DNA of 64,000 nucleotides from an uncultured bacterium (GTDB lineage Bacteria > Acidobacteriota > HRBIN11 > JAKEFK01): assembly GCA_963777505.1 (NCBI GenBank), contig CAVZQN010000001.1, positions 416,001 through 480,000 of the forward strand, given 5' to 3'. Below the pieces are notes generated by a model. The model had not been told where the DNA came from, searched no databases, and saw nothing but the letters and a program-made list of their open reading frames with translations. Below, piece after piece: positions 32,870-62,493 of this stretch. A program made the translations under genes and the position numbers. Numbering within the stretch: position 1 is the first letter of the stretch; each line of letters starts with the position of its first letter.

Positions 32870-35529
32870 ATGATAGGCGAAACTGTATCCCATTATCGCA
32901 TTCTCAATAAACTTGGCGGAGGCGGAATGGGAGTTGTTTATGAAGCGGAAGATACCGAGCTTGGCCGCCATGTTGCGTTAAAATTCCTGCCTGATCACAT
33001 GGGAAATGATCAAATTACGCTGGATCGTTTCCGCCGTGAAGCCCGAGCAGCATCAGCACTCAATCATCCGAACATTTGTGTGATCCATGAAATCGGGCAG
33101 CACGAAGGACGTCCTTTCATCGCAATGGAATTGATGGAAGGACACACTTTGAAATATGCCATCGGCGGCAAACCGATGGACATCGATCAGACGATTGAGT
33201 TCGGAATCCAAATTGCAGATGCGCTCGATGGAGCACACTCGAAAGGGATTGTTCACAGAGATATCAAACCTGCAAATATTTTCGTTACTGCACGCGGACA
33301 TGCGAAACTTCTCGATTTTGGATTAGCGAAGCAAACCACATCCGAAACAGAACCCAATACTGAAAATGCAAACAGCCAGCGTTCCGGATCAACTCACAAA
33401 ATCAGGATCCACAATGGGAACCGTTTCATACATGTCACCGGAACAAGCGCGTGGAAAAGATCTGGATGCGCGTACTGATCTGTTTTCATTCGGTGTTGTT
33501 CTTTATGAAATGGTCACTGGAGTCTTACCATTCTCCGGACAAAACCCGGGAGAGATTCTGGAATCCATCTTTACAAAGCAACCTGTTGCACCAGTACGAT
33601 TGAATCAAAAAGTTCCCGCCGAACTTGAACGGATCATTAATAAGTGTTTAGAAAAGGATAGGAATCTTCGATACAGCAGTGCTGCAGAATTACGAACCGA
33701 TCTTCAGCGGTTAAAAAGGGATACAGTTCATTCCAGCATCTCAAGCGGTCAAACAGCTGCATCAAAACCATCACGAAATAGATTATGGCTTTTCGCAGTG
33801 ATCGGTTTCATTCTGTTAGCTGCAGGAATTTCCTGGTTCATGCGAGACAAATCCACGGAGGTTTCATCTACACAAAAGTAAACGTACCATGCTTGCGGTT
33901 CTTCCTTTTGAGAACCTCGGGACGGCGGAAGATCAATATTTTGCAGCGGGAATGACCGATGAAATTACCAGCCGTTTATCTACCGTTCCTCAACTTGGGG
34001 TCATTTCACGAACGAGTGCAATGCAATATGACAAAACGAAAAAAAGTCTAAAACAAATCGGGCAGGAACTTGGAGTTGATTATGTGCTGGAAGGAAGCAT
34101 TCGATGGAGTCATTCAGCAGATCTCAGTAAAGTTCGTGTCACACCACAGTTAGTTCGCGTAGCCGACGATACCCAAATCTGGTCCAATATTTACGATCGC
34201 GTCATCAATGATGTATTTCAGGTTCAATCAGAGATTGCGCAAAACGTCATTACACAACTGGGAATTACATTGCTTGAGCCGCAAAAAGCTACGTTAACCG
34301 AAGCGCCAACTCAAAATGTCGAAGCGTATCAATATTACTTGCGCGGCCAGGAACTCGCTATTTCGCCTTCCTATGATCTGACTATGTTCGAAGAAATGAT
34401 CCAGAACTTTCAAGATGCTGTAAGACTGGATGCTAATTTTGCCTTAGCCCATGCGAAGTTAGGAATCGCGCAGCTTCAACTGTTCCACGAAGGCTACGAT
34501 ACATCAACTCAACGCTTAGAGACAGCGAAATCGTCAATTGATAAAGCGCTTCAGCTGAATCCGAATTTGGCGGAGGCAAGGCTTGCGCTTGGGTATTACT
34601 ACTATTACGGATTCACAGATTATGAACGAGCATTGCAGGAATTTAATCCAGCACTGGCCGCATCTCCGAACAATACGGAGGTATTATCTGCGATTGCATA
34701 TGTTGAAAGAAGACAAGGAAAATTTGAAGATTCCATCCGTCATTTGAAAAATGCCATGGAACTGGATCCTCGCAATCCCAACATCGCTGCGAATATTTCT
34801 GTGGTCCTGGCGCGTATGCGCAGGTATCAGGAAGCCGAAACGTATATAGACATGGCGCTCCGTCTCGCTCCTGATCAAGTTTATACCTACGGGATGAAAT
34901 TGTTGAATACACTTCACTGGAAAGGGGACCTCAAAAAGTGTCGAAGAATTCTTGAACGAATGCCTGAAAGAGAACCCGCATTTTACAATTGGTTCTGGAT
35001 ATTCCAAGAAACAAATGAACGAAAATATGAAGCCGCTCTAAACCGGTTAGACCGGATACCCATAGAAATATTTCAGGAAGAGTCTAGATTCGCACCAAAG
35101 TCTTTAATGCGCGCTGAAGTACTTTCTCTGATGAAACAAAACGAAGCTGCGCGTGCGGAATACGAAAAAGCTCGAATTTTTCTGGAAGAAGCAGTAAAGG
35201 AAAAATCGGACTATGCCGCTGTGTATTCATCATTGGGTAAAGCATATGCAGGGCTCGGACGAAAGGAAGATGCGATCCGCAATGGCAAAAAGGCGATGGA
35301 ATTGGTTCCATTGTCGATCGATAAGTTTATGGCGCCAGATTATATAGCTGACATGGCTCAGATATATGTCATGGTTGGCGAATACGATCAGGCACTGAAT
35401 GAAATCGAAACGCTGTTCCGTGAACAATCCTGGTTTTCAGTCAATGGATTGAAACTCCAACCCATGTGGGATCCGTTACGAGACCATCCACGCTACAAAC
35501 AAATCATTCAGAAGTACTCAAAAAATTAG
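32870..35529 (+). CDS. Ser/Thr protein kinase, TM helix, TolB-N-like domain and TPRs; +1 frameshifts near 33365 and 33876
   Basis: [21 protein letters not shown] and [10 protein letters not shown] motifs; LAVLPFEN; three ORFs join by removing one A from each of two A-runs. Confidence 0.88.
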
Positions 35530-47806: not shown

Positions 47807-49148
47807 ATGAAAGAACTAGAAGCGATGCTTGGCTCAATCAGTAATTGGGTTTGGGGACCACCCATGCTAATTCTGCTAGTAGGCACCCACATCTTTTTAA
47901 CCTTCAGGTTAAAAATCATTCAACGGTACTTGGGAACTGCCATCAAACTTTCATTTAAACGAACGAAAGAAGGAACGGGAGATGTCAGTCAATTTGGAGC
48001 GCTCACCACAGCACTCGCTGCAACGATCGGAACGGGAAATATTGTGGGTGTTGCTACAGCGATCGCCGCAGGTGGACCAGGAGCTGTTTTATGGATGTGG
48101 CTTACGGGCGTTTTCGGAATTGCTACGAAATATTCTGAAGCAGTACTCTCGGTAAAATACCGCATCACTACCGATCAGGGAATGATGGCGGGCGGTCCAA
48201 TGTATGTGCTTGAACGGGGGATGAACAAGAAATGGTTGGGCACTGTTTTCGCTGCGCTGACTGCTGTCGCTGCTTTCGGTATTGGCAATATGGTGCAAGC
48301 GAATTCGATTTCAACTCTGGTTCATGAAACTTTCAACATTTCACCCTGGATTAGTGGCATTGTAATGACTGTTTTTACGGCTGTTGTGATTTTAGGTGGA
48401 ATTAAATCGATCGCTACAGTTTGCGAAAAGCTCGTTCCATTTATGGCCATTTTTTATGTAATTGGCTGCGCGATCTTATTGGTGATGAAATACTCAACCA
48501 TTCCTGAAACCATTCAACTCATTTTTAGCAGTGCATTCACTGGACAAGCAGCGATTGGAGGATTTCTCGGAGCCGGAATGAAGGAAGCGATCCGCTATGG
48601 CGTAGCGCGTGGACTTTTTTCAAATGAATCCGGATTAGGAAGTGCACCGATTGTTGCGGCTGCAGCACAAACAAAAAATCCAGTACGGCAAGCTCTTGTT
48701 TCCTCAACCGGAACTTTCTGGGATACCGTTGTTGTCTGCGCGATGACTGGACTGGTCCTGGTTAACTCTGGTGAATGGACTCGCGGATTACAGGGCTCTT
48801 CATTAACGAAAGCTGCATTTTCTGAATTACATACGGTCGGCCCGATTGTATTAACGATTGGATTACTGACTTTTGTATTCTCCACAATTCTTGGATGGTC
48901 TTACTACGGCGAAAAAGCTGCCGAATATTTGTTCGGATCGCGAGTGATTAAACCCTATCGTTTGTTGTGGGTTGTTGCTGTAATGATCGGCTCGGTTGCT
49001 TCTCTACCCGATGGTTTGGTCTTTTGCAGATATCGCCAATGGATTGATGGCTATTCCAAATCTCATTTCCTTGCTTGTTCTCAACAAGGTAATTGTGTCA
49101 GAGACAAAAAAATATCTATGGAGCGAGAATCTGGATCAATCTGCTTGA
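47807..49148 (+). CDS. Alanine/glycine:cation symporter (AGCS family); +1 frameshift near 49008
   Basis: [26 protein letters not shown] and [12 protein letters not shown] motifs; the corrected frame gives [12 protein letters not shown]. Confidence 0.92.
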
Positions 49149-49167
49149 AGCGTTTTTAAACGCCGGG

Positions 49168-50214
49168 TTACTCCACTTGCATTAATCCTTCATCGTATTT
49201 TTCGCGAGCCCTGTCGGCGTCCGCTTTAGTGAGTGGTGCGAATCCGGAGCCAGTCTTTTTCATTTGTTCGATGTAGTTATTGTATTCAGGTGATCCGCCA
49301 TAGTGGATTTGAGGTTTCCCAGGCGTGGATTCAGGATCGTAAATAAATGTGCGGCCTTTATCGTCCTTGCCTGCAACGACCCAGTGATTGGGTGATCCGT
49401 CGCCATCAGTATCCAGGTTGACCGGCCAGCTTTGACCGTTTTTGAAAATTTTATCCGGAAGCCCCGGCCCTGCCGGTGGAGTGAGACCGGCAGCAGTATA
49501 AAGCGAATGCATATCTCCATCCAAAACTCCTTTTCCACCTTTTGGATCGGGTACAGCGTATCCGCTATGAATCATTTCGCTTAGCTTTGCTAAATCTCCG
49601 TGCGTTGCCGTTTTGTCTTTTATCCGCTTTTCGATTTCATCGAGTTCTTTTGATGGTGGTAAATTCTTTTTCATAGCACCGGTAAGCTTCAGTAGTCCCT
49701 GTTCTCCACCGCTGTTAATGGCCGATGCAATTACTGCAGTCCCGCCGCATCGATCTTTATCTTCCGTAGTTTTTGGATTTTGATCATGTTGCGAAAGGTT
49801 TTGCAAAACTTTTTCGCGATCCATTTTGCCACTGTCGAAAATCGGCGTATTGTCAGGTACACGTGCTTCTGGTTTATAAGGGACTCCTGCAGGAGATGAC
49901 GGCTGCGATGAAAGTTTTTCGGTGACCCAACCTGAAACTTCGACTTTCTTTTCAACCACTGGATAAGTTCCACCAATAAGATCACTCGTAGTCGAAGCTG
50001 AAGCGGATTTGAACGACTCTTGAAGAGTCTGGCGCATCACTTCACCTGAAATTTGCGATTCAGATGTTTTCGCTGCTTTTCCTTCCGATGTTAAAGGCTG
50101 AGTGGTAGAAGAATTCTGCTGCGCATTGCCAGTAGTCTTTTGCGTCTCCGGCGATGACTCACTCGAAGTAGTTGCCGATACCGATTTGTTGCTAATGCCT
50201 TTAATATCGCTCAT
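49168..50214 (-). CDS. Hypothetical protein with S/T-rich N-terminus and a putative papain-like Cys-His-Asp domain
   Basis: GGAGG RBS before ATG 50214; SQ...DRCGGT, NHWVV and IYDP motifs. Confidence 0.65.
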   Translation of the reverse strand: MSDIKGISNKSVSATTSSESSPETQKTTGNAQQNSSTTQPLTSEGKAAKTSESQISGEVMRQTLQESFKSASASTTSDLIGGTYPVVEKKVEVSGWVTEKLSSQPSSPAGVPYKPEARVPDNTPIFDSGKMDREKVLQNLSQHDQNPKTTEDKDRCGGTAVIASAINSGGEQGLLKLTGAMKKNLPPSKELDEIEKRIKDKTATHGDLAKLSEMIHSGYAVPDPKGGKGVLDGDMHSLYTAAGLTPPAGPGLPDKIFKNGQSWPVNLDTDGDGSPNHWVVAGKDDKGRTFIYDPESTPGKPQIHYGGSPEYNNYIEQMKKTGSGFAPLTKADADRAREKYDEGLMQVE

Positions 50215-50312
50215 TGGGAACCTCCACAAGAAAATTCGATGACTCATTTTTATTTTCGCCTGGAGCGAAAAAAAATCGCCACCTGTACAGGTAGGTGCGG
50301 GATGGTGGAGAG

Positions 50313-50675: not shown

Positions 50676-53351
50676 TTATCGTGGTGTGCGAATTAAATCA
50701 GTCCAGTTCAAAATTACGTTGATTGGAGGACTCGATTGCGCTGTCGCTGTGGAGCTCGAAACAAGAAAGCGCTGGCCATCTGCTGTAACATCGTAATCCG
50801 AGCCATACGGATAAAATGTAGAGGCCGTTATTGGAGCTTTGAATAAAACACGGGGAACACCGGCAACGAAATTTCCTGCGTTGCCATTCACTTCAACTGC
50901 AACGACTTTTCTATCCAACGATAGATAGAACAATTCTTTTCCGTCGCGGCGCCATCTTGGCTGGGCTCCGCCATCCGCAGAAATTCGCCATTTTTTTCCT
51001 GATACAGGAAAGGATTGTACGTACACTTCATAATCTCCAGATTCATCTGACGTATACGCGATCCATCCTCCATCAGGTGAAAATGAAGCTTGAAATTCAT
51101 CGAATTCGGTTTGCAGATAAGGTGAGATTTTCTTTTCTAAGAAATTCATTACCCATATGTCGTTTCTTTTGCCGTACCTGTAGCCGGCTATAAACTTACC
51201 ATCAGATGACCAATCGCTAAGATAAAGGGACTCTTTTAGCAGAACCTGTTCTTCGCCAGCTCCGGTGGAGGACATCAGCAAGATATTAGGTGTATTCGTT
51301 AAAGTTGCTCTGCAATACACAACAGATTTTCCATCGGGAGACCAGACGGGGGTTTCATCAAATTCAGGACGGTATGTCAGGCGAGTTGATACATTGCGCG
51401 AAATATCGGTCACCCAAACATCAGGGGTTAAAGCATCGGGATCACCGCGCAGCCAAGCAACTTGAGTACCGTCCGGGGACAGACGATGGAATCGTGAATC
51501 AACACTATTTTCTAGCTCTCCAACCTGCCCTTGCTGAACACCATTTCGGCCATACCATAAGAATTCAACATCCGACAGTTGGCCTGGCCAATATGCAATC
51601 ACGCCATTATCGGAAACTGAAATCGCAGACTGGCCCGTTGCACTCATCCGTCCACGTTTCGCGATCGGAAACGCTTCGCCCTGAATCCGAAGCGATTGGG
51701 GATCAAACGATTGCGCCAGCATAGCGAAATCTTTGAGATACAAAAGATAGCCGGGAGGCGCATAACTGACCCTGGAACCAGAATCCAACACAAATCTTTT
51801 TTCAGAGGAATCCAGTGAACCAGAATAGATACCTTGATTCTTTTTTGTAAACCGGATCAGATATAGAAAATGGCGCCCATCTGGCAGAAATACTGGAAAG
51901 CGGTGCGTAAGTTCCCCCGCTGATTGATCTAGTTCCGTAACTTGTTTTGGTTTACCTCCATCAGCAGGAACCTGATAAAGTGGACCATTTGGTTGATCAG
52001 CAAAAATGATGATGTTGCTGTTTCCCCAGAAGCCGCCTCGATTTCGAGATGCGTCACATAAAACTTGGGGACGTCCGCCTGAAATCGATATCTTCATTAA
52101 TTTGCCTCTTGCAAAAAACGCAATATACCGGCTGTCGGGTGACCAGAATGGGTTCGTGGAATGTTCTGTGCCTGGAAGCTGACGAGCTTCAGGCTCTTTC
52201 AACGGACGCAGCCAGAGCGTTCTTCTACCATCTGCATTGTTATTAAAGGCAACATACTTACCATCCGGTGAGATTGCTACGGGGCCTGTCCCGGTAAAAA
52301 AGGCGCTGGGATCCGGAGGATGAATCGACAATTGGATTGCAGATTTTTGATGCTGAGGTAAAGATTTGGAAAAATATGCGACTGCAAAGGCCGCTGCGGC
52401 AAGTGCTCCCAATGCTGTTAAAACCCATGGTAGCTTTTGAAAACTCCTATGAGAAACCATCGCAGTCGCTGATGCTTCAGGCTGCGAAATGCTTTCTAAA
52501 ATTCCTTGCAGTTCCAGCATGACATCATGTGCAGTTTGCCATCGCAAATCAGGATCCTTTGCAAGACAAATTTTTATAAGACGCTCAAGCGCGCGTGGTG
52601 TTAACGGCTGAATGCTGGAGATTGGGTGGGGCTCAGCAGACATGATTGCTGTGATCAAGCTTGCGCGGCTTTTTCCTATAAATGCTTTTTTGCCTGTAGC
52701 CATTTCGTAAAGCACAGCACCAAGCGCAAAAATGTCTGTGCGTGTATCTGCTCTCCCTTCTTCTAATTGTTCCGGAGACATGTATTGAAATGTCCCCATG
52801 ATTGTTCCTTCGGCAGTGAGTTCTCTCTCTTCGGTTGCAAGCTCCGATAGTGAATCTGATTTCAATTGAGCTGCAGCTTCAAATTTTGCTAACCCAAAAT
52901 CAAGCAACTTTGCGCCCGATTTTGTCAACATGATATTGCCCGGTTTCAAATCACGATGAACGATTCCTTGCTTATGTGCATTGTGCAGAGCATCAGCAAT
53001 CTGAATTCCATAGCGAACTGTTTGTTCAATCGGAAGAGCGCCTTTCGTTAGTTTTTCTGCGAGAGTCTCCCCTTCCAGGAATTCCATGACAAGATAATCG
53101 ATTCCATTTTGATGACCGATATCATGGAGAGTACAAATATGTGGATGGTTCAAGCTTGAAACTGCACGGGCTTCACGTTCAAAGCGCTGTTTCAAATCAG
53201 TATTTGCCGATAAGTGCGAGGGTAATACTTTGACAGCAACTGTGCGGTTTAATCGCGTATCGATCGCTCGATAAACTTCACCCATTCCACCGGCACCGAG
53301 CGCAGATTGAATTTCAAAGTGGCCAAGCTTCGTACCGGCTTTTAGTGACAT
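50676..53351 (-). CDS. Ser/Thr protein kinase, TM helix and TolB-like (PD40) beta-propeller
   Basis: GAGGMGEVY, HRDLKPGN, DFG and YMSPEQ motifs; repeated SPDG blades; INVILNW C-terminus. Confidence 0.93.
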   Translation of the reverse strand: MSLKAGTKLGHFEIQSALGAGGMGEVYRAIDTRLNRTVAVKVLPSHLSANTDLKQRFEREARAVSSLNHPHICTLHDIGHQNGIDYLVMEFLEGETLAEKLTKGALPIEQTVRYGIQIADALHNAHKQGIVHRDLKPGNIMLTKSGAKLLDFGLAKFEAAAQLKSDSLSELATEERELTAEGTIMGTFQYMSPEQLEEGRADTRTDIFALGAVLYEMATGKKAFIGKSRASLITAIMSAEPHPISSIQPLTPRALERLIKICLAKDPDLRWQTAHDVMLELQGILESISQPEASATAMVSHRSFQKLPWVLTALGALAAAAFAVAYFSKSLPQHQKSAIQLSIHPPDPSAFFTGTGPVAISPDGKYVAFNNNADGRRTLWLRPLKEPEARQLPGTEHSTNPFWSPDSRYIAFFARGKLMKISISGGRPQVLCDASRNRGGFWGNSNIIIFADQPNGPLYQVPADGGKPKQVTELDQSAGELTHRFPVFLPDGRHFLYLIRFTKKNQGIYSGSLDSSEKRFVLDSGSRVSYAPPGYLLYLKDFAMLAQSFDPQSLRIQGEAFPIAKRGRMSATGQSAISVSDNGVIAYWPGQLSDVEFLWYGRNGVQQGQVGELENSVDSRFHRLSPDGTQVAWLRGDPDALTPDVWVTDISRNVSTRLTYRPEFDETPVWSPDGKSVVYCRATLTNTPNILLMSSTGAGEEQVLLKESLYLSDWSSDGKFIAGYRYGKRNDIWVMNFLEKKISPYLQTEFDEFQASFSPDGGWIAYTSDESGDYEVYVQSFPVSGKKWRISADGGAQPRWRRDGKELFYLSLDRKVVAVEVNGNAGNFVAGVPRVLFKAPITASTFYPYGSDYDVTADGQRFLVSSSTATAQSSPPINVILNWTDLIRTPR

Positions 53352-53415
53352 CAACTCATTTCAACATAACAACCGCAGAATGCCAAACAGACTCACGAAA
53401 TCATCAAGCTCAGAT

Positions 53416-54247: not shown

Positions 54248-55021
54248 TCAGGAAAATGAAAGAGCAGCGCTTGCGGCTTCTTTCAAAGTCTTCATCACCT
54301 GGAGATACGGATATGGGCCATAGCTAATACGGGAAACTCCCACTTCAGCAAGTTGTTTTGATGAAGGTGCATCCGGTTGATACATAATATTGATCGGCAG
54401 AGGTGAACGTTCGCAAAGCGTTTCAATGAATGCAATATTGATCAATCCCGGAACAAAAAAGCCAGTCGCACCGGAATCTGCATAAGCTGAAGCCCGGCTC
54501 AAAGCTTCTTCGAGTTGGCTCTCATTGTGAGGAGCAGAATCGGCCTTCAAAAAAATATCCGTGCGTGCATTTATGAAAAGGGGTACTGACAAACGGTCAG
54601 CCGTTTTGCGAATTGCTTGAATCCGTTCCCCTTGGTTCTGAATCGAATACAGGTCAGTTCCACCAACGATTTGATCTTCAAAATTGATTCCTACCGCTCC
54701 GGCTTCAATTACTTTTGCTATAGACACCTGGAGTTCAGCAGGACTCGTTCCATAACCTCCTTCAAAATCGAAAGTAACTGGAAGATCCACATTTGAGATA
54801 ATTCGATTTAGATTTGCCAGTGCAAGTTCAAACGGCAGTTTTTCCCCATCTTGAAATCCATGTGCTGCCGCAACAGACCAACTACCGGTAGCGATTGCCT
54901 TTGCTCCAATCTCTTGTACGATTTTTGCGCTTCCCGCATCCCAGACATTAAACAAAATCACAGGGTTTCCTTTTGTGTGAAGACTTTTGAATGTATTTGC
55001 ATGTTCTTTTTGCTTCGTCAT
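54248..55021 (-). CDS. Isocitrate lyase/PEP mutase family protein
   Basis: NVWDAGSA, D.EGGYG, GINFED and FINARTD motifs. Confidence 0.92.
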   Translation of the reverse strand: MTKQKEHANTFKSLHTKGNPVILFNVWDAGSAKIVQEIGAKAIATGSWSVAAAHGFQDGEKLPFELALANLNRIISNVDLPVTFDFEGGYGTSPAELQVSIAKVIEAGAVGINFEDQIVGGTDLYSIQNQGERIQAIRKTADRLSVPLFINARTDIFLKADSAPHNESQLEEALSRASAYADSGATGFFVPGLINIAFIETLCERSPLPINIMYQPDAPSSKQLAEVGVSRISYGPYPYLQVMKTLKEAASAALSFS

Positions 55022-55171
55022 TTGATCCTCTTTCTTTTGCTTCTTTGTAGTGAGTTACTCATAATAAATCATGAAGGTGCAAGATTAGGTTACCCTCAAA
55101 AAACCGATGTATAATCCTACAGTTTTCATTGTCATTACTTAAATAAAAGCCCAAACCGGAGTCACGACAAC

Positions 55172-58100
55172 ATGAGTTCTTTGCAATCAGGGGAGACGAT
55201 TCTTCATTATAAGATCCTCGAGAAAATCGGTGAGGGTGGAATGGGGGCAGTTTATAAGGCAGAGGACCTGAAACTCGGAAGACAGGTCGCATTAAAATTT
55301 TTATCTTCGGAATCTCCTGAAGATAAAAAAGCCAAAAGCCGCTTGTTGCAAGAAGCCCGAGCAACATCGGCCCTCAACCATCCCAATATCGTAACAATCT
55401 ATTCCATCGAACATGCCGACGGTTTTGACTTTATAGTCATGGAATATGTGGAGGGGGAAACTCTAAAATCGGTCATCGATCAGGGTTTGTTAGACACCTC
55501 CCGGTTGATGGACCTCGGCGCAGAGATCGCGGATGCTCTTTTTGCAGCACACTCTGCCGGATTCATTCATAGAGACATTAAGCCATCAAATATTCTGGTT
55601 ACTCCGCGCGGTCAGGCGAAGATACTTGATTTTGGTCTCGCAAAATTGGTCCCATTTGTTGATGAACAGCTCAGCGGTGAACAAACGATGAGCAAACTGA
55701 CAAGGACCGGCATGATCATCGGCACGGTAGCTTACATGTCTCCTGAACAGACACGCGGTGAGCCTCTGGATTTTCGTACCGATATTTTTTCGTTAGGTGC
55801 TGTTCTTTATGAGGCAGCTACCGGGGTAGTGCCATTTAGCGGGCCAAGCGTGCTGTCGGTGCTTCATGAGATAGCCACTCTGGATCCGCCAACACCAAGC
55901 ACGTTGAGTCAGAGTGTTCCGCAAGGACTCGATACCATTATCAAACGCGCGCTGGCAAAAAATAAAGAGCAGCGTTATTCCTCTGCTGCGGAATTAGCCG
56001 AAGCTTTGCGCTCACTTCGATTTGCAAATCGTTATCAGATACTCCGTGAAATTGGTCGCGGTGGAATGGGTGTCGTTTATCTTGCTCGCGATCCTATGTT
56101 GCAACGCGACGTTGCAATCAAAGTCATCACTCCAGAATTCCTTGGATCAGATGCTGTAGAACGATTTAAACGAGAAGCACGAGTGGTCGCCAACATGGAT
56201 CATCCATCCATTGTTGGCGTCTATGACATTGGAGAACACGGAGGATCACTCTTTTTTGTTATGCCTTTTGTGGCAGGAACGAATTTGCGAGCATTCATTA
56301 AAGATGGAGCGTTGAGCCTTGGTGATGTACTGAACATCGGAATTCAAGTAGCTGAAGCACTTGATTACAGTCACTCCAAGGGGGTTGTTCACCGGGATAT
56401 CAAGCCGGAAAACATTTTAGTCTCACAGGATGATAGTACGACCGAAGGGATTCGAGTCAGAGTGACTGATTTCGGTCTTGCGATGGCATCAGCACAAAGC
56501 CATCTCACAAAAACAGGAACGCTTGTAGGCACCATATCATATTTAAGTCCCGAACAACTTTCATCAAGGGAACTTGATGGCCGTTCCGATATTTATTCGC
56601 TTGGAATTGTTTTATATGAATGTCTTGTCGGAAAGTCGCCTTATTTGGGAGAGCTGCAATCCGTTCTGTACAGAATTGCGCATGAAATTCCCCAATCACC
56701 CAGAGCATTGGGAGCAGAGATAGCAGAAGAATTGGAACAAATCATCATGCGATCGTTGGAAAAGGATCCCGGTAAAAGATTCCAACGCGCAAAAGAAATT
56801 GCAGAGATGTTAAAGCTCCATCGTGCAAAATTACGTGAGAGCGAGAGACTACAAAAGCTTTCCGTAGTTCAGCGCGCTTCGACTTTAATCCAACGTCCGA
56901 CACAATCTCCTTTTATAGGACGCGAAAAGGAGTTTACTGAATTACAGCGGAGTCTGAATGCAGCGTTGCATGGAGAATGCCAGTTTGTAGTAATTGGTGG
57001 AGAAGCAGGAATTGGAAAAAGCAGGTTGTTGGATGAATTGGAAAATCTGGCAAGAGCAAAAAAGATCAGGCTTCTTCACAGCCGATTCGTAGAACAAGAT
57101 CAAACCTTTCCATACCAGGGCTTCTCCGAAGCAATTCAAGAATATTTCAGAATCAAAGTAACTACATCATCCGGGCCTGTGGATTTTTCTGATCTTGCTT
57201 CAGATCTCGTTTCCCTATTCCCCGTTCTTGCGGAAATGGCCGAATTCACAGGCGGTCAAAAGCTAGTCGTATCAGGCGAAGTGAAGAAGACACAAGACCG
57301 TACTTATATTTTTGATCTACTCGCAAGATCGTTTGCCCGTATCGGCGGAGGCAAACCACTCATCATCTTGTTTGAAGATCTGCAAAATGCCGATGTTTCA
57401 CTCGATGCTCTTCAATACATCGTTCGCCGTCTCGGTCCAACACCAACTTTGATGGTGGGAACGTATCGTACAACCGAAGTTGATAAACACCATCCGCTGA
57501 CAAAGATGCTAAAAAGTTTTCAAGGTGACAAACGTTTTAGCCAGATTAACCTTGAACCTCTATCCATTTCTGATTACCGGCCCTTTTTACAAACACTGAT
57601 TGGCGGATCTGATATGGAACAACATTTTGTGGATAAACTCTACGAAGCTACGGAAGGGAATCCACATTTTACAAAAGAACTAGTTCGCTCATTAATTGAT
57701 TCCGGAAAAATTGCCAAAAATGAAACAGGGGCATGGAGTTTGAGCGGTGAAACTGCACTTTCTTCGGAAGAACTGCCGCCGACAATTCAAGAAACAGTTG
57801 AAAAGCGAATTGAACGTCTTCCCCAGGATTGGCGGGAAATTTTGTCCACAGCATCCATATTAGGTAAAACTTTTGATTTTCGTGATCTTGAAGTATTAAC
57901 CGGAAAAAAAGAAAACATTGAAGATGTAATTGACGGTTTAATCACATCTGGTTTTATAGAAGAAGAACGCCGGTCACGCAGCGATCAGTTTATTTTCTCC
58001 AGCGGTATTGTACGTGATGTACTTTATGCTTCTGTACCCAGGCGAAAGAGAAGAACACTTCACAGAAAATATGCAGAGGATCTTGAAGAGCGTAATGCCG

Positions 58101-61100
58101 GACGTCTCGAACGGGTTTACTCGCTTCTTGTGCATCATTATTCGGAAGGTGATGTCCCTGAAAAGGTAATTGAATTCGGAATCCAGTCCGCAAAAAAATC
58201 ACTGGAAGCTTTAAGCTCCGAAGATGCTCTGCGCACGACAAAAGTCGTACTTGAATTCCTCCAGGGCGAAGAAGATTCCAACAGTGAATTAGAAGGAGAT
58301 GTTCGCATGCTTCTTGCTGAGGCTCATCGTCTTGCAAGCAACACAGATGCAGCCCTTCAAGAATTGGAATCAGCAGTCAGTGTTTTCCAAAAAAGTCAAA
58401 ACACTGAGCGCTTGATTGAATCAATCGTGATGGCGGCTCAGACGGCATGGGATGGACGTAAAGCGGATGACACGCGGCGTTGGGTTGAACAAGGATTGAG
58501 CTTAGCGCGGTCCAGCGGAAAAGTTGAAGCTTTAGTTGACTTGCTGTCCGTTGGAATCACTGTTGCGAATCTCAGGGGCGAATTCGATAAAGCCAGGGAA
58601 TATATGCAGGAAACGGAACGGATTAAACCTGCAATGAAAGAAAAAGAAGAATCCGTTTCACAGGGTGGCAGGCTTGCTGTAGGAATCCCCACTCCTGTTA
58701 CGACAAAACATCCAGTCGATATTCTCATTATGGAAGAGGCGGAGATCCTGGGAAATGTTTTTGAACCCCTTCTTGCTATGGATGAGCATGGTTATGTGGT
58801 TCCGTGTCTCTGTGAGAGTTGGGAAGCTCTCGAAAAAGGGAAATCATTTCTGTTTAAACTGCGGCCGAATGTTCTGTTGCACAATCAACAGCCTCTTACT
58901 GCAGAAGCCGTAAAACGTTCTTTTGAAAAAGGAATTCAGTTAACAAAAGACCGCTTACCTGCTTCTTATTCATCCATACGAGGTGTTACCGAATTCTTAA
59001 ATGGATCATCGGATCATGTTGAAGGAATCATAATCCATTCGCCTCATTCTTTTGCAATTGAACTTCTTGAACCTCTTCCTATTTATCCCTCGCTGTTGAC
59101 AGATAGCCGGGCTGCAATCTGTCTGGATCAGGATAGTCGTCTTAGCGGAACGGGGCCTTTCAAAATTGTATCGTTCAAACCGGATCATGTTTCGATGGAA
59201 CGAAATGAAAATTACTGGAATGGCGCGCCGGCTCCACTGGATGGAATCGATTTCCGTTGCGGAGCAACTTCTGCTGAAATGAGATCGGGTTTACTTTCCG
59301 ATGAACTTGACCTGGCAAGCAATTTACTTCCGGAAGATCTTGAATCCCTTTTACAGAATCCGCAATTCCGATCCGGCATTGTTGAGGCACCAAAGAAAAC
59401 AATTTATTTTGCATTCTTCAACAGCTATAGTAAGTTGGGCCAAAACGCTGATCTTCGGAAAGCACTGAGCGGAGTCATCCGCGTTCATGATTTGATTCGA
59501 GGAACTCTCGGACGCTATGCACTTCCAGCAGAAGGTCTCATCCCTCCTGGAATATTAGGTCATGATCCTGGCAGAAGGCGTCAATCACTCTCGCAAGAAC
59601 AAATACACGAACTGATAAAAAATACAGGATTTGAGTTACCAATCCGTGTTCGAGCGTCGGTTCATCCGCTTTTACTCGATCGATATTCCGCTTTAACGAA
59701 AGCTATTTTTTCAATTTGGTCCGAAATCGGTGTGGAAGTAACGAATACAGCTGCGAATATGAATCAATATATTGGTTCATGGAAAAATAATGAAGATTAC
59801 GATTTATTGATCGGACGCTGGAACGCTGACTATGATGATCCCGATAATTTTACATACACACTTTTTCAATCAGAATTCGGCGAGTTCCGAAGTTACTATT
59901 CATCGAAAGAAATGGATCAATTTATTGAAGAAGCCCGCACCGAACCGAATCCACAAACTCGCGAAAAGGTATATCGCAAAATAGAGAGTTTTTTATTAGA
60001 TAACGCCTTTGCAATTCCTCTGTTTCACGAAATTGATTATCGTGTTGCGAATCCAAAAATTCGGCGGCTCAAGCTTCATAGCAGTCCTCCGTTTGTTAAT
60101 TATTCAAAGCTTGGGAAATCCGAAACAGCAAAGCCGGCAGTGGTCCGGAAAACTGAAGGAGGGCTCGTACAGGTTGCAATGGCCGGCAGGATTGAGAATC
60201 TTGATCCTTCATCGTGCACCACCGTTGCCCAGGGCGATGTGCTCCCCAGTATTTATGAGGGTTTGACCAGACAAGCAGAAGACGCCCAAATCATTCCATG
60301 GCTCGCATCGGAATTTAAAGCAGAAGAAGGCGGAAGAAAATTTCGTTTCCGTTTACGGGACGATGTACGCTTTCATGATGGACGACGTCTTTCCTCACGC
60401 GATGTCCGGTTCTCGTTCGAACACACTTTGCAAAATCCAACGAATCCGGCACGTTGGATGCTGGGCTCAATTCGTGGTGCCAAAGCTTTATCCGATGGTG
60501 AAACGAAAGAATTAGCGGGATTTAAAATCATTTCAGCTCTGGATTTTGTAGTGGAGTTGGATCAGCCTCTTTCCTTCTTTCCTGCCCTGTTGAGTTATCC
60601 AGCAACTGCCATTATCCCGGAAGGAACACGAGACATCAGCGGTAATTTTCTGAATCAATGTATTGGAACAGGACCTTTTCGCGTAGCGCGTTTCGAACCC
60701 GGACAACTTCTTGATCTCGAAGCAAATCCTGATTACTGGCGGCGCGGATATCCGAAAAGTGATCGGCTCGTTATGAACATGGGGCTTTCACCGCAGGATA
60801 TATTGAGCGGTTTCCAATCCGGTCGCTTTTCGGTCGTTGGAGATTTATTTCCTGGAGATGTTGATACTCTTCGTCATTCAAAAGTACCTTTCAAGTATGG
60901 CGAAACTCCACAACTTTGCACCTACTATCTTTTTCTCAATACTCATAAACCACCATTTTCTGATGAAAAAACACGTCACGCACTCATTCAATCCATTGAT
61001 ATTGAAGGAATGGTTCGAAGAAATGTTGGCCGGTTCGCTTTTCCTGCTCACAGTCTCATTCCGCCCGGACTGCTCGGATATGAGCCCAAACGTGCCTATA

Positions 61101-61621
61101 ACAAAAAAGCTGCTGCTAATGCTCCAAGTATGGATAATGTGGAACTAAACGTTATTTTGGGTACCGTTTATGAGGGCCCTTATTCATCCCTTTCTCAAGA
61201 ATTCTTTCAGTTGCTTCGGCAAAAAGGATTTCAAATAAAAAAGGAAAATAAAAAGGCCGAAGATTATTTCCTTTTCGATTCTGTTTCGGATACTGATCTT
61301 GTCATGACGCGTTGGTTTGGAGACTACCCTGACCCTGATACGTTTTTCTATGGATTGCTGCATCGAAAAGAAGGAATTCATGGCGCTTTTTCCGGATCTC
61401 CTGAATTAGACCAACTCATTGAAAGAGGCCGAACTGAAACGCTTCCACATTTAAGACATAAAATTTACCAGGAAGCGGAGCAATTGCTTGCAGAACATGC
61501 CATCTTGGTTCCACTCTTCCACGAAAAAACATACCGGTTTGCTTCTCCGGATACGGAATCGTTTGAATTAAATCTTGCCATCCAGGTTGTTCCCTACGAA
61601 AAACTCTGGATCCGTAGATAA
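55172..61621 (+). CDS. Tandem Ser/Thr kinase, AAA/STAND ATPase, helical region and two SBP family 5 (OppA-like) domains
   Basis: Two full kinase motif sets; FIGRE, Walker A GEAGIGKS, Walker B LFEDL and GNP.F; two SBP5 domains (LR.DVRFHDG, GTGPF, W.ADY.DPD, IPLFH). Confidence 0.9.
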   Translation: MSSLQSGETILHYKILEKIGEGGMGAVYKAEDLKLGRQVALKFLSSESPEDKKAKSRLLQEARATSALNHPNIVTIYSIEHADGFDFIVMEYVEGETLKSVIDQGLLDTSRLMDLGAEIADALFAAHSAGFIHRDIKPSNILVTPRGQAKILDFGLAKLVPFVDEQLSGEQTMSKLTRTGMIIGTVAYMSPEQTRGEPLDFRTDIFSLGAVLYEAATGVVPFSGPSVLSVLHEIATLDPPTPSTLSQSVPQGLDTIIKRALAKNKEQRYSSAAELAEALRSLRFANRYQILREIGRGGMGVVYLARDPMLQRDVAIKVITPEFLGSDAVERFKREARVVANMDHPSIVGVYDIGEHGGSLFFVMPFVAGTNLRAFIKDGALSLGDVLNIGIQVAEALDYSHSKGVVHRDIKPENILVSQDDSTTEGIRVRVTDFGLAMASAQSHLTKTGTLVGTISYLSPEQLSSRELDGRSDIYSLGIVLYECLVGKSPYLGELQSVLYRIAHEIPQSPRALGAEIAEELEQIIMRSLEKDPGKRFQRAKEIAEMLKLHRAKLRESERLQKLSVVQRASTLIQRPTQSPFIGREKEFTELQRSLNAALHGECQFVVIGGEAGIGKSRLLDELENLARAKKIRLLHSRFVEQDQTFPYQGFSEAIQEYFRIKVTTSSGPVDFSDLASDLVSLFPVLAEMAEFTGGQKLVVSGEVKKTQDRTYIFDLLARSFARIGGGKPLIILFEDLQNADVSLDALQYIVRRLGPTPTLMVGTYRTTEVDKHHPLTKMLKSFQGDKRFSQINLEPLSISDYRPFLQTLIGGSDMEQHFVDKLYEATEGNPHFTKELVRSLIDSGKIAKNETGAWSLSGETALSSEELPPTIQETVEKRIERLPQDWREILSTASILGKTFDFRDLEVLTGKKENIEDVIDGLITSGFIEEERRSRSDQFIFSSGIVRDVLYASVPRRKRRTLHRKYAEDLEERNAGRLERVYSLLVHHYSEGDVPEKVIEFGIQSAKKSLEALSSEDALRTTKVVLEFLQGEEDSNSELEGDVRMLLAEAHRLASNTDAALQELESAVSVFQKSQNTERLIESIVMAAQTAWDGRKADDTRRWVEQGLSLARSSGKVEALVDLLSVGITVANLRGEFDKAREYMQETERIKPAMKEKEESVSQGGRLAVGIPTPVTTKHPVDILIMEEAEILGNVFEPLLAMDEHGYVVPCLCESWEALEKGKSFLFKLRPNVLLHNQQPLTAEAVKRSFEKGIQLTKDRLPASYSSIRGVTEFLNGSSDHVEGIIIHSPHSFAIELLEPLPIYPSLLTDSRAAICLDQDSRLSGTGPFKIVSFKPDHVSMERNENYWNGAPAPLDGIDFRCGATSAEMRSGLLSDELDLASNLLPEDLESLLQNPQFRSGIVEAPKKTIYFAFFNSYSKLGQNADLRKALSGVIRVHDLIRGTLGRYALPAEGLIPPGILGHDPGRRRQSLSQEQIHELIKNTGFELPIRVRASVHPLLLDRYSALTKAIFSIWSEIGVEVTNTAANMNQYIGSWKNNEDYDLLIGRWNADYDDPDNFTYTLFQSEFGEFRSYYSSKEMDQFIEEARTEPNPQTREKVYRKIESFLLDNAFAIPLFHEIDYRVANPKIRRLKLHSSPPFVNYSKLGKSETAKPAVVRKTEGGLVQVAMAGRIENLDPSSCTTVAQGDVLPSIYEGLTRQAEDAQIIPWLASEFKAEEGGRKFRFRLRDDVRFHDGRRLSSRDVRFSFEHTLQNPTNPARWMLGSIRGAKALSDGETKELAGFKIISALDFVVELDQPLSFFPALLSYPATAIIPEGTRDISGNFLNQCIGTGPFRVARFEPGQLLDLEANPDYWRRGYPKSDRLVMNMGLSPQDILSGFQSGRFSVVGDLFPGDVDTLRHSKVPFKYGETPQLCTYYLFLNTHKPPFSDEKTRHALIQSIDIEGMVRRNVGRFAFPAHSLIPPGLLGYEPKRAYNKKAAANAPSMDNVELNVILGTVYEGPYSSLSQEFFQLLRQKGFQIKKENKKAEDYFLFDSVSDTDLVMTRWFGDYPDPDTFFYGLLHRKEGIHGAFSGSPELDQLIERGRTETLPHLRHKIYQEAEQLLAEHAILVPLFHEKTYRFASPDTESFELNLAIQVVPYEKLWIRR

Positions 61622-61659
61622 TGAGATTTCTTGCGGTGAGGGCCGCCACCAACTTCGGG

Positions 61660-62493
61660 CTATTTAGACGCCGATGCTTCTAAGGCCACCGGTGAGGCAG
61701 TGGGTTGCTGGGCTGGGTTTAGACAATAGTTTGTAAATGTGGTTGAAATCTCCCGTGTTTCGGAATAAATGAATAACGCTTTCACCTTAAGGTTCAAGTG
61801 AAGAGAAGCCGGAAGCATTGAATCGCCGTATGGCATCTGTGTGTAATCAAAATCTAAATTCGTTACCTTTGCCAGACCAAAACCGAAACCGACATCATCG
61901 TTGAGACCCGCCTGCAATCTAACAATCCGATATTCCCGATCCACCCACATCGTGCCGTCAAGATGATTTAACACCTTTTCTATTCGATTGCGAACCGGTA
62001 ATTTGGTTTTCTTATGTTTAAACAACAAAACATAAGCCTCGCTGTGATCGTTCGAATCAATGGTGAAATCATATTTCTGCAATAGTTCGTGCCAGCTAAA
62101 GGGAATTCGCTGCGAATTGTTCCCGTTTTGCACCGACTTTTGCCATTCCTTTTTGTTCTGAGCTTCTTCTTTTTTCTGCTTCTCGTTTAACGGACGATTG
62201 TTGATTTGATGCAGTTCAAGGCGCGGTTTTTCCTGATTCCACAAGGTTCGATAATTTCTTGTTTCCGTCTTTTTCGCATCCCCCTTCCGGTTCAACGAAC
62301 GAATATTCATCGTTACGTCGTAACCATAATTCCGGATATTTGATTCATTCTCTGAAGCCTGTTGGGCAATTTTCTGAATAAGCTCATCATGATTCTCCGC
62401 CCCTTCAAGTGGCAGATATATAGAGCCGATTGCAATGAAGACTAGAACAGTTAGAGGTAAGATTCGAAGCATCTGGATCTTTTGCTTCCTCAT
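61660..62493 (-). CDS. Exported hypothetical protein
   Basis: N-terminal hydrophobic segment; beta-rich body with G.MWVD...IVRL. Confidence 0.65.
   Translation of the reverse strand: MRKQKIQMLRILPLTVLVFIAIGSIYLPLEGAENHDELIQKIAQQASENESNIRNYGYDVTMNIRSLNRKGDAKKTETRNYRTLWNQEKPRLELHQINNRPLNEKQKKEEAQNKKEWQKSVQNGNNSQRIPFSWHELLQKYDFTIDSNDHSEAYVLLFKHKKTKLPVRNRIEKVLNHLDGTMWVDREYRIVRLQAGLNDDVGFGFGLAKVTNLDFDYTQMPYGDSMLPASLHLNLKVKALFIYSETREISTTFTNYCLNPAQQPTASPVALEASASK

Follow-up and report, generated by a model that had tools for sequence, protein, structure and literature searches.

STAND proteins (signal transduction ATPases that have numerous domains) are built from a nucleotide-binding oligomerisation domain (NOD), in some cases an arm, plus a sensor and effector domains, and multimerise upon inducer binding. 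The part of PMC4381067 that sets out this scheme lists 'serine-threonine kinases like PknK' among them, and describes the switches of STAND and nucleotide-binding leucine-rich repeat (NLR) proteins as usually carrying repeat sensors of the LRR, TPR or WD40 type (PMC4381067). Solute-binding proteins of family 5 (SBP5) have a precedent as cytoplasmic sensors in SgrR/DsvR, for which the relevant portion of a preprint gives a helix-turn-helix (HTH) joined to SBP_bac5 (bioRxiv 10.64898/2026.04.01.715812). Here we analyse a gene at positions 55172..61621 on the plus strand of a 64,000-nucleotide stretch of DNA (hereafter 'the window') from an uncultured bacterium of the phylum Acidobacteriota (assembly GCA_963777505.1, contig CAVZQN010000001.1, positions 416,001 to 480,000). 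Its product of 2149 amino acids (aa) joins two kinases, a STAND NTPase, a helical arm and two SBP5 domains in one chain. We put at roughly 0.6 the probability that this protein is a soluble, cytoplasmic, ligand-gated STAND Ser/Thr kinase, with a switch of the MalT/PknK type and a pair of Venus-flytrap SBP5 domains as its sensor.

Results

Layout of the gene and its product

The gene is a single unbroken open reading frame (ORF) with no stops or frame changes inside, and its start codon is supported by an N-terminal MSS(L/I)xxGxxILHY sequence conserved among relatives. The features discussed below, drawn from profile matches, PDB sequence matches and AlphaFold2 (AF2) models, are as follows.

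55172..61621, plus strand: whole ORF, 2149 aa plus stop; start supported by the N-terminus kept in relatives
55205..56017, plus strand: kinase 1 (K1), aa 12-282; Pfam Pkinase with all catalytic motifs; Hanks-type Ser/Thr kinase; lineage-specific N-terminal addition
56033..56815, plus strand: kinase 2 (K2), aa 288-548; Pfam Pkinase; the ancestral kinase, retained in single-kinase relatives
56909..57997, plus strand: STAND nucleotide-binding oligomerisation module, aa 580-942; AAA_16, AF2 model, Foldseek STAND matches
58004..58624, plus strand: all-helical TPR-like arm, aa 945-1151; AF2 secondary structure (model residues 386-592), weak TPR_MalT/TPR_12, TIGR03903
58661..60121, plus strand: SBPa, aa 1164-1650; complete family-5 (cluster C) solute-binding domain; Pfam, PDB sequence matches, AF2
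60155..61618, plus strand: SBPb, aa 1662-2149; second complete family-5 solute-binding domain; Pfam, PDB sequence matches, AF2, Foldseek

Pfam recognised two Pkinase domains (E 6.4e-102; strongest over 288-543), one AAA_16 at 580-761 (68.6 bits against a cutoff of 32.6) and two SBP_bac_5 domains (E 3.2e-107; strongest over 1706-2066), with weak TPR_MalT/TPR_12 matches under the cutoff at 1013-1148 (E about 0.008). The characteristic motifs are found in K1 (GEGGMG 20, VALK 39, HRDIKPSN 133, DFG 153, SPEQ 190), in K2 (GRGGMG 295, VAIK 314, HRDIKPEN 407, DFG 433, SPEQ 459) and in the NTPase (FIGRE 581, GEAGIGKS 610, GNP 829). An original prediction, made by inspection of the sequence, had described two adjacent kinases with all their motifs, an AAA_16-type ATPase followed by a TPR-like helical region, and two complete SBP5 domains, arranged in the order effector, NTPase, sensor. 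Pfam, the motif positions, the helices of the AF2 model, alignments to PDB sequences over almost their full length and the Foldseek matches all agree with that description.

The NCBIfam profile NF033483 (PknB/Stk1 PASTA kinase) scored 633.6 against a cutoff of 450, with a match spanning model positions 5-288 of 563. It passes the cutoff only by summing the two kinase domains, and we rejected membership of that family given that there are no PASTA matches in Pfam or NCBIfam and no transmembrane (TM) segment.

Averaged over 19 residues, Kyte-Doolittle hydropathy peaks at 1.38, which gives no TM-like segment. The chain starts directly with a kinase, and no signal peptide or lipobox was seen, as the original prediction had also noted. 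Because it lacks a TM segment and a signal peptide and has ATP-dependent domains at its N-terminus, the protein is predicted to be cytoplasmic and soluble.

Two kinases and the origin of the first

Both kinases look active, judged by their conserved residues. For K1, the catalytic residues are present in almost all two-kinase relatives (K42 in 43/43, D135 in 42/43, N140 in 42/43 and D153 in 43/43), and for K2 the equivalent residues K317, D409, N414 and D433 are present in 116/116. The alpha-C glutamates, E61 in K1 and E335 in K2, are also conserved, both domains are of the Hanks type (PF00069), and the K2 activation loop carries the sequence T-K-T-G-T.

K1 is the add-on, since single-kinase relatives retain K2. 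Of the single-kinase form, only the opening six residues (MIGxxL) are replaced by it, and no linker separates the two kinases. Amongst two-kinase forms, identity to the query is 53-87% for K1 and 67-89% for K2. A kinase tree combined 43 K1 and 116 K2 domains with the 82 full-length kinase domains that tblastn found in the gene's own genome. The K1 domains formed one clade with support of 1.0, the sole other member being the K1 of the query gene itself, and this clade nested among the other Hanks kinases of the genome: its ancestor nodes (support 0.92 and 0.91) contained 13 and 16 genomic kinases and no K2. A single clade in this position indicates that K1 was added once, recruited from the genome's pool of receptor-type Hanks kinases, and is not a duplicate of K2. 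Tandem duplication of K2 was rejected on the basis of this tree and of the 40% identity between K1 and K2 (E 5e-64).

In a tree of the segment from K2 to the end of the protein, the 43 two-kinase forms fell inside a clade of 50 tips (support 0.998). The other seven are single-kinase proteins with a canonical MIGTKL start, nested within the otherwise two-kinase clade with support of 0.885-0.998; they could reflect recombination between co-resident paralogs or an error in the tree.

The Hanks kinome of this genome (G000) is very large for its 5.2 Mb, with 126 matches to the query, mostly to the kinase domains. Several of the 82 full-length kinase domains found by tblastn with K1 are interrupted by stops. 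Elsewhere in the window, at about 32873-33716 on the plus strand (G000:C1:448873-449716), adjacent pieces match K1 residues 6-161 (55% identity) and 173-283 (51%). Each piece has an open frame of its own, 206 aa and 184 aa long, and together they look like a frameshifted or split kinase gene.

The STAND switch module

The middle of the protein has the properties of a STAND NTPase of the AAA_16/MalT clade, as judged by its motifs and predicted fold. The P-loop nucleotide-binding domain (NBD) contains Walker A (GEAGIGKS, 610-617) and Walker B (..FED, 734-736), and GNP (829-831) lies in the helical domain (HD). The switch appears intact: K616, E735 and N830 are kept in 116/116 relatives and D736 in 104/116. 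Pfam assigned AAA_16, AAA_22 and ATPase_2 to this region, and it is thus not NACHT or NB-ARC.

An AF2 model of aa 560-1165 (pLDDT 81.5, pTM 0.60) shows the NBD, the HD, a winged helix (WHD) at about aa 870-942 and helical repeats at aa 945-1151. These repeats, about ten paired helices, form the TPR-like arm that connects the NTPase to the SBP domains. The best Foldseek matches for the NTPase and arm were 6mfv, a TPR-containing STAND protein (E 1.9e-12), Apaf-1, Avs3, CED-4, MalT (8bob) and Dark. The top 21 matches listed were STAND proteins, with Orc1/Cdc6 appearing from rank 22 and Avs5 at rank 24. The protein fits the STAND scheme, with the kinases in the place of the effector and the SBP pair in that of the sensor.

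The paired solute-binding domains

SBPa and SBPb share 29% identity over about 500 aa (E 4e-73). In a PDB sequence search each aligned over almost the full length of solved family-5 binding proteins: the matches to SBPa cover 6-459 of 491, and those to SBPb have E-values of 1.6e-39 to 4e-35, the best being the peptide-binding protein 8upi and MppA/OppA. The AF2 model of aa 1150-2149 has a pLDDT of 85.8 (about 90 for SBPa) and a pTM of 0.82, and its 172 PDB matches in Foldseek at E <= 0.001 all have the family-5 binding-protein fold. The TMt values were 0.90 for 5u4o, 0.88 for YliB (1uqw), 0.86 for CtaP, 0.84 for apo DppE, 0.81 for open MppA and about 0.70-0.74 for peptide-bound OppA/DppA. Because the best fits include open or unliganded binding proteins, the clefts do not look collapsed; both domains are complete and are modelled in an open state. 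Pocket integrity had been singled out for checking in the original prediction, and the models support it.

In the part of PMC3295651 that concerns the ligand, Asp408 of DppA forms a salt bridge to the charged terminus of the ligand (PMC3295651). When SBPa was aligned with E. coli DppA (1dpp_A) using phmmer, counting along the alignment, this residue fell opposite D1553, which is kept in 114/116 relatives. In SBPb the same motif, W-x-x-D-Y-x-D-P-x-x-F, contains D2051, which is retained by 116/116. The Asp of the motif is also present in the peptide-binding 8upi and is replaced by Ala in 5u4o, a solved SBP5 not annotated as peptide-binding. This conserved Asp lends modest support to a ligand with a free amino group. 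The sensor domains are 44-53% identical across families, a degree of conservation that fits a constant ligand.

A family spread across the Acidobacteriota

A homologue search scored 8000 candidates, 2808 of them with E <= 0.001, a count that takes in any long kinase or AAA_16 protein. The 120 best relatives, query included, were sorted by domain-wise BLAST into the following forms.

K1-K2-NTPase-helical-SBPa-SBPb: 43/120, 2100-2166 aa, 57-79% identical to the query
K2-NTPase-helical-SBPa-SBPb: 74/120, mostly about 1870-1890 aa, 51-57% identical to the query
No kinase: 2/120, on short contigs, one marked partial
Truncated two-kinase form: 1/120

The common form thus has one kinase, a STAND module and two SBP5 domains, and the two-kinase arrangement is a lineage-specific sub-clade of at least 43 protein clusters. 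The original prediction had expected single-kinase fusions to exist, which they do; the two-one-two arrangement that it considered unusual is no one-off. The relatives come from NCBI, ENA, JGI and Logan assemblies, and all of those with a name belong to the Acidobacteriota (Blastocatellia, Pyrinomonadaceae and Thermoanaerobaculia). Their annotations read 'ABC transporter substrate-binding protein' or 'serine/threonine protein kinase/ABC-type transport system substrate-binding protein'. In the ESM Atlas, the family's own cluster scored 0.99.

Among 401 sampled genomes of the phylum (G000 included), at least 25 have a match at E <= 1e-150. In the window's own family (f1), 6/6 of the other genomes sampled have a match, as have 4/4 of family f25, the 25/401 and 4/4 tallies resting partly on one genome (G024) that is flagged as unpublished. 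The match in the f1 genome G155, which is 73% complete, is partial. Full-length two-kinase matches were found at eight loci in six genomes (G000, G041, G071, G096, G108 with two and G144 with two), one of them on a 3.0-Mb contig, and all belong to f1. The single-kinase form is found in f1 too and in no fewer than ten further families.

The genome that contains the window (5.23 Mb in 14 contigs) carries three members of the protein family, the query being the first. The second is a single-kinase paralog of 1884 aa on contig C11, 53% identical to the query. The third, at C4:1102054-1106095, is split into ORFs of 746 and 613 aa, with the break inside the helical arm (query residues 1022/1039), and has one SBP domain only, which is SBPb-like; it may be a gene split in two, a pseudogene or a natural variant with a single SBP. 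In another genome, at G388:C2:86543-97888, two single-kinase members, each 51% identical to the query, lie head to tail, a tandem duplication of the whole receptor gene of 1.9 thousand aa.

The K1-K2 junction, ..ALRSLRF|ANRYQILR.., is constant in the 12 two-kinase relatives compared, apart from one QIIR. Public sequencing runs contain relatives only, of about 85-95% identity, with a 0.05-0.06 share of the sampled words. No contig from these runs covers the whole gene, and X1 and X2 leave parts uncovered. A 426-nt contig of a relative about 90% alike spans 55944-56369, across the junction, and a 10-kb contig of a relative begins at 56027, exactly at the junction. No RNA run was present among the public runs listed with matching words.

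Gene neighbourhood

The gene is monocistronic by layout, being flanked upstream by a divergent gene of the PEP-mutase family and downstream by a convergent gene without an assigned family. Besides the PEP-mutase-family protein, nearby genes encode a protein of 277 aa, one protein with TPR and one with fn3 domains, and a membrane Hanks kinase. The 20 kb examined around the gene contain neither a permease nor an ATPase gene of an ABC transporter, in keeping with the original prediction, which had seen no transporter genes adjoining it.

The neighbourhoods of 21 loci were compared: the window together with six more two-kinase loci, the split copy and 13 loci of the single-kinase form. Besides the gene family itself, no cluster was common to more than two of these loci, and there were no ABC genes among the conserved neighbours. 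The sole recurring neighbour, shared by the window and G108:C12, is a membrane Hanks kinase with PD40 repeats. In the window this is a kinase of 892 aa (50676-53354, minus strand), 1.8 kb upstream, with a TM segment and PD40/TolB-like beta-propeller repeats; in G108:C12 a homolog of 862 aa adjoins the two-kinase copy (L061).

A scan for promoters and terminators over 54800-62000 gave seven promoter-like and five terminator-like sites, against 10.4 and 7.7 in shuffled sequences, and none of these lay at the gene ends. By eye, putative signals can be seen upstream of the ATG: TGTATAAT at about 55108-55115 and GGAG at about 55158-55161.

Two further ORFs, 49168-50247 (minus strand, 359 aa) and 61660-62493 (minus strand, 277 aa), match no Pfam or PADLOC family, and the 277-aa protein has two or three paralogs in related genomes. 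The ORF at 47807-49159 (plus strand, 450 aa) encodes a sodium:alanine symporter for which the Pfam match stops at residue 400. Its final 50 or so residues look unlike a transporter tail, and the frame may shift close to the 3′ end.

Discussion

Proteins of this family probably respond to a small molecule by phosphorylating proteins. Considering the domain order described above, we infer ligand gating, oligomerisation and trans-phosphorylation, together with the ligand class and the physiological role, along the following lines. In the resting state, the ADP-bound NTPase would be kept closed by the helical arm together with the SBP pair. A small cytoplasmic ligand, probably one with a free amino group such as a peptide or peptide-like metabolite, would enter one or both SBP clefts and cause the lobes to close. 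Closure would draw the arm off the NTPase, allowing ADP/ATP exchange and oligomerisation, and the N-terminal kinases thus brought together would trans-phosphorylate their activation loops and then phosphorylate substrates. Hydrolysis of ATP would reset the switch. K1 probably gives a second output, or else is K2's activating partner or substrate within the chain.

Several observations weigh against this reading. The dynamics of the whole cycle are drawn by analogy with MalT, and the test for TM segments was a hydropathy scan alone, which is crude. A PDB sequence search with residues 571-1160 returned 0 matches, and the TM-scores of the Foldseek STAND matches are low (0.12-0.50) with large rmsd, because domain orientations differ. 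For the sensor, one ligand-contact residue only could be mapped. At the position aligned with a second DppA contact, which we take to be Arg355, SBPa has Leu, and the alignment is poor there. The NCBIfam scores for OppA, DppA, NikA and GsiB are far under their cutoffs, so the ligand class proposed above is tentative. The counts from the phylum survey are a floor, as two candidates only were scored per genome. There are two to three paralogs per genome, which could fit a conflict system, and the position of the gene varies within the genus: in the same-genus genome G041 the giant gene is at C4:2.90 Mb, over 2 Mb away from the flanking-gene orthologs at C4:0.70-0.74 Mb. Identity between G041 and the window is 75% for the giant protein and 63% and 53% for the two flanking genes.

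An alternative that we regard as unlikely is that the SBP5 domains are non-binding scaffolds, acting in protein-protein contacts, substrate recruitment or oligomerisation, with the kinase controlled in another way, for example by the TPR-like arm or by other kinases. The pTM of 0.82 for the 1000-residue pair suggests a fixed interface between SBPa and SBPb, as a scaffold might have, and the low scores of the specific OppA, DppA and NikA models, the loss of the Arg355-equivalent contact from SBPa and the single SBP domain of the third copy in the genome point the same way. However, both domains are full length, the model of the pair fits open apo binding proteins with a TMt as high as 0.90, and D1553 and the SBPb Asp of the same motif are near-invariant in 116 relatives, at a position where 5u4o has Ala. 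Furthermore, two Venus-flytrap domains have been maintained across a phylum-wide family.

It is improbable, and slightly more so, that the protein is an Avs-like anti-phage or conflict STAND receptor, in which the SBP5 domains recognise a phage peptide or protein terminus and the kinases are an abortive-infection effector. Such a role would suit the STAND layout, the presence of Avs3 and Avs5 among the structural matches, the variable position and multiple paralogs of the gene, and the faster divergence of K1 relative to K2. The kinase domains also score highly against the PADLOC families PD-T4-6, mad6 and MkoA. However, the best 25 of the 37 PADLOC families matched the kinase domains only, with no model of a defence STAND or sensor among them, and with about 80-125 Hanks kinase matches in the genome kinase similarity therefore says little. 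The neighbours are metabolic or unassigned genes and form no defence island; we thus rejected assignment to the known anti-phage STAND systems in PADLOC. Defence genes typically have a patchy spread, in contrast to the presence of this family in 6/6 and 4/4 genomes of two families, and sensors of phage proteins usually vary quickly, whereas the sensor domains here keep about 50% identity between families and have conserved motifs in the cleft. Immunity, one of two roles offered in the original prediction, thus finds no support in these data, and the protein looks vertically kept within families.

That the chain is an artefact of assembly or gene calling, fusing separate kinase, ATPase and binding-protein genes, is effectively refuted: for it speak the runs that contain relatives only and the 10-kb contig that begins at the K1-K2 junction, but a collinear protein of 2140-2166 aa is found in 43 clusters from independent assemblies (NCBI, ENA, JGI and Logan) and at eight loci in six genomes of the window's family, the ORF is uninterrupted, and the junction, which the original prediction had flagged as the point at which to check for a fusion, is both constant in relatives and bridged by the 426-nt contig.

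Returning to the ligand-gated STAND kinase, its role is most likely physiological signalling of nutrient, peptide or cell-wall-turnover status rather than immunity. We favour a physiological sensor because the gene is retained within families, the sensors are about 50% identical across families and the neighbourhood is ordinary. A more speculative and rather unlikely extension is that these proteins form a phylum-wide, hitherto undescribed class of STAND receptors in which Venus-flytrap domains of the periplasmic type have moved into the cytoplasm, there to sense imported or recycled (for example murein-derived) peptides much as NOD1/2 do. The linker-less tandem of active kinases in one family, fused to the NLR-like switch, would then correspond, in a single bacterial chain, to the pairs of 'tandem kinase + NLR' in plants.

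Each element has its precedents: there are STAND kinases, SBP5 sensors in the cytoplasm and fusions of SBP5 to a kinase. In a full-text literature search of journals outside subscription and without supplements, we found no description of a kinase-STAND-SBP5 protein, nor of Hanks kinases in tandem in bacteria, whether or not on a STAND protein, the tandem-kinase papers being on plants only. To our knowledge, the opening of STAND switches by small molecules is known in detail mainly for MalT. The family offers a different STAND sensor, a well-understood and crystallisable ligand-binding fold that is present twice. With this layout in at least 117 of the 120 best relatives and in many families of a dominant soil phylum, it would be a tractable system for studying the coupling of ligand to NOD, and would be a starting point for finding out which signals the very large Hanks kinomes of Acidobacteriota detect. 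The label 'ABC transporter substrate-binding protein' is misleading for metabolic reconstruction of soil metagenomes. The tandem-kinase sub-clade represents a dated, single-origin domain accretion, and lets one ask what a second active kinase adds to the output of a STAND protein.

Comparison with known systems

The SBP domains share the full bilobed fold and the W-x-x-D-Y-x-D-P-x-x-F segment of OppA, DppA and MppA. Unlike those proteins, the present one has no signal peptide, lipobox or adjacent permease and ATPase, and identity is about 16-23% by structural alignment. We rejected an ABC-importer substrate-binding protein because of the N-terminal kinase, the lack of ABC neighbours and the sub-cutoff equivalog scores for OppA, DppA, NikA and GsiB. 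SgrR/DsvR likewise uses a family-5 binding domain as a cytoplasmic sensor without a transporter, but there a DNA-binding output is fused directly to one SBP5, whereas here two SBP5 domains would act on kinases through a STAND NTPase, if at all. Membership of the SgrR family was rejected, since Pfam found no HTH or SgrR_N. A kinase and a family-5 domain also share one chain in Actinomycetota proteins of about 930-1130 aa with Pkinase and SBP_bac_5, which surfaced as leads in the ESM Atlas (0.84-0.85). These are shorter, have no AAA_16 among the three Pfam families listed per cluster, and would presumably be receptor kinases of the membrane with the SBP outside the cell.

Animal NOD1 and NOD2 are intracellular sensors of peptidoglycan-derived peptides, and belong to an unrelated lineage; Pfam found neither NACHT/NB-ARC nor LRRs in the present protein. 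The term 'NLR-like' used in the original prediction therefore holds as a functional analogy, whilst the NTPase itself is of the AAA_16/MalT type; classification as an NLR (NACHT/NB-ARC plus LRR) was rejected on the Pfam result, the resemblance being at the level of the STAND class only. Plant tandem kinase proteins that work with NLRs offer an analogy only, again from an unrelated lineage, in that tandem kinases are tied to a STAND/NLR switch. The part of the Yr15 paper that introduces the plant family describes it as kinase-pseudokinase (Yr15 paper), in contrast to the two kinases here, which both keep all catalytic residues.

For the ATPase-TPR part the best profile was TIGR03903, the TOMM kinase/cyclase fusion (residues 570-1149 against model 472-1043; whole-protein E 3.5e-140), a family that also has an N-terminal kinase. 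The score of 469.1 bits is under the cutoff of 705.75, Pfam found no cyclase here, with SBP5 domains present instead, and no TOMM genes occur among the annotated neighbours. Membership of this family was rejected on the score and the missing cyclase.

MalT-clade STAND kinases, exemplified by M. tuberculosis PknK, also have an N-terminal effector, an AAA_16-type NOD (NBD-HD-WHD) and a helical arm or TPR-like region; we take this to be the PknK architecture, the likeness being one of description, with the PknK sequence outside the comparison. Walker A, Walker B and GxP motifs are all found in the present protein, and MalT (8bob) is among its structural matches. The NTPase-arm part has no sequence-level match in the PDB. 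Where MalT and PknK have a repeat domain alone, this family has two SBP5 domains after the helical region, and its two-kinase members carry their kinases in tandem.

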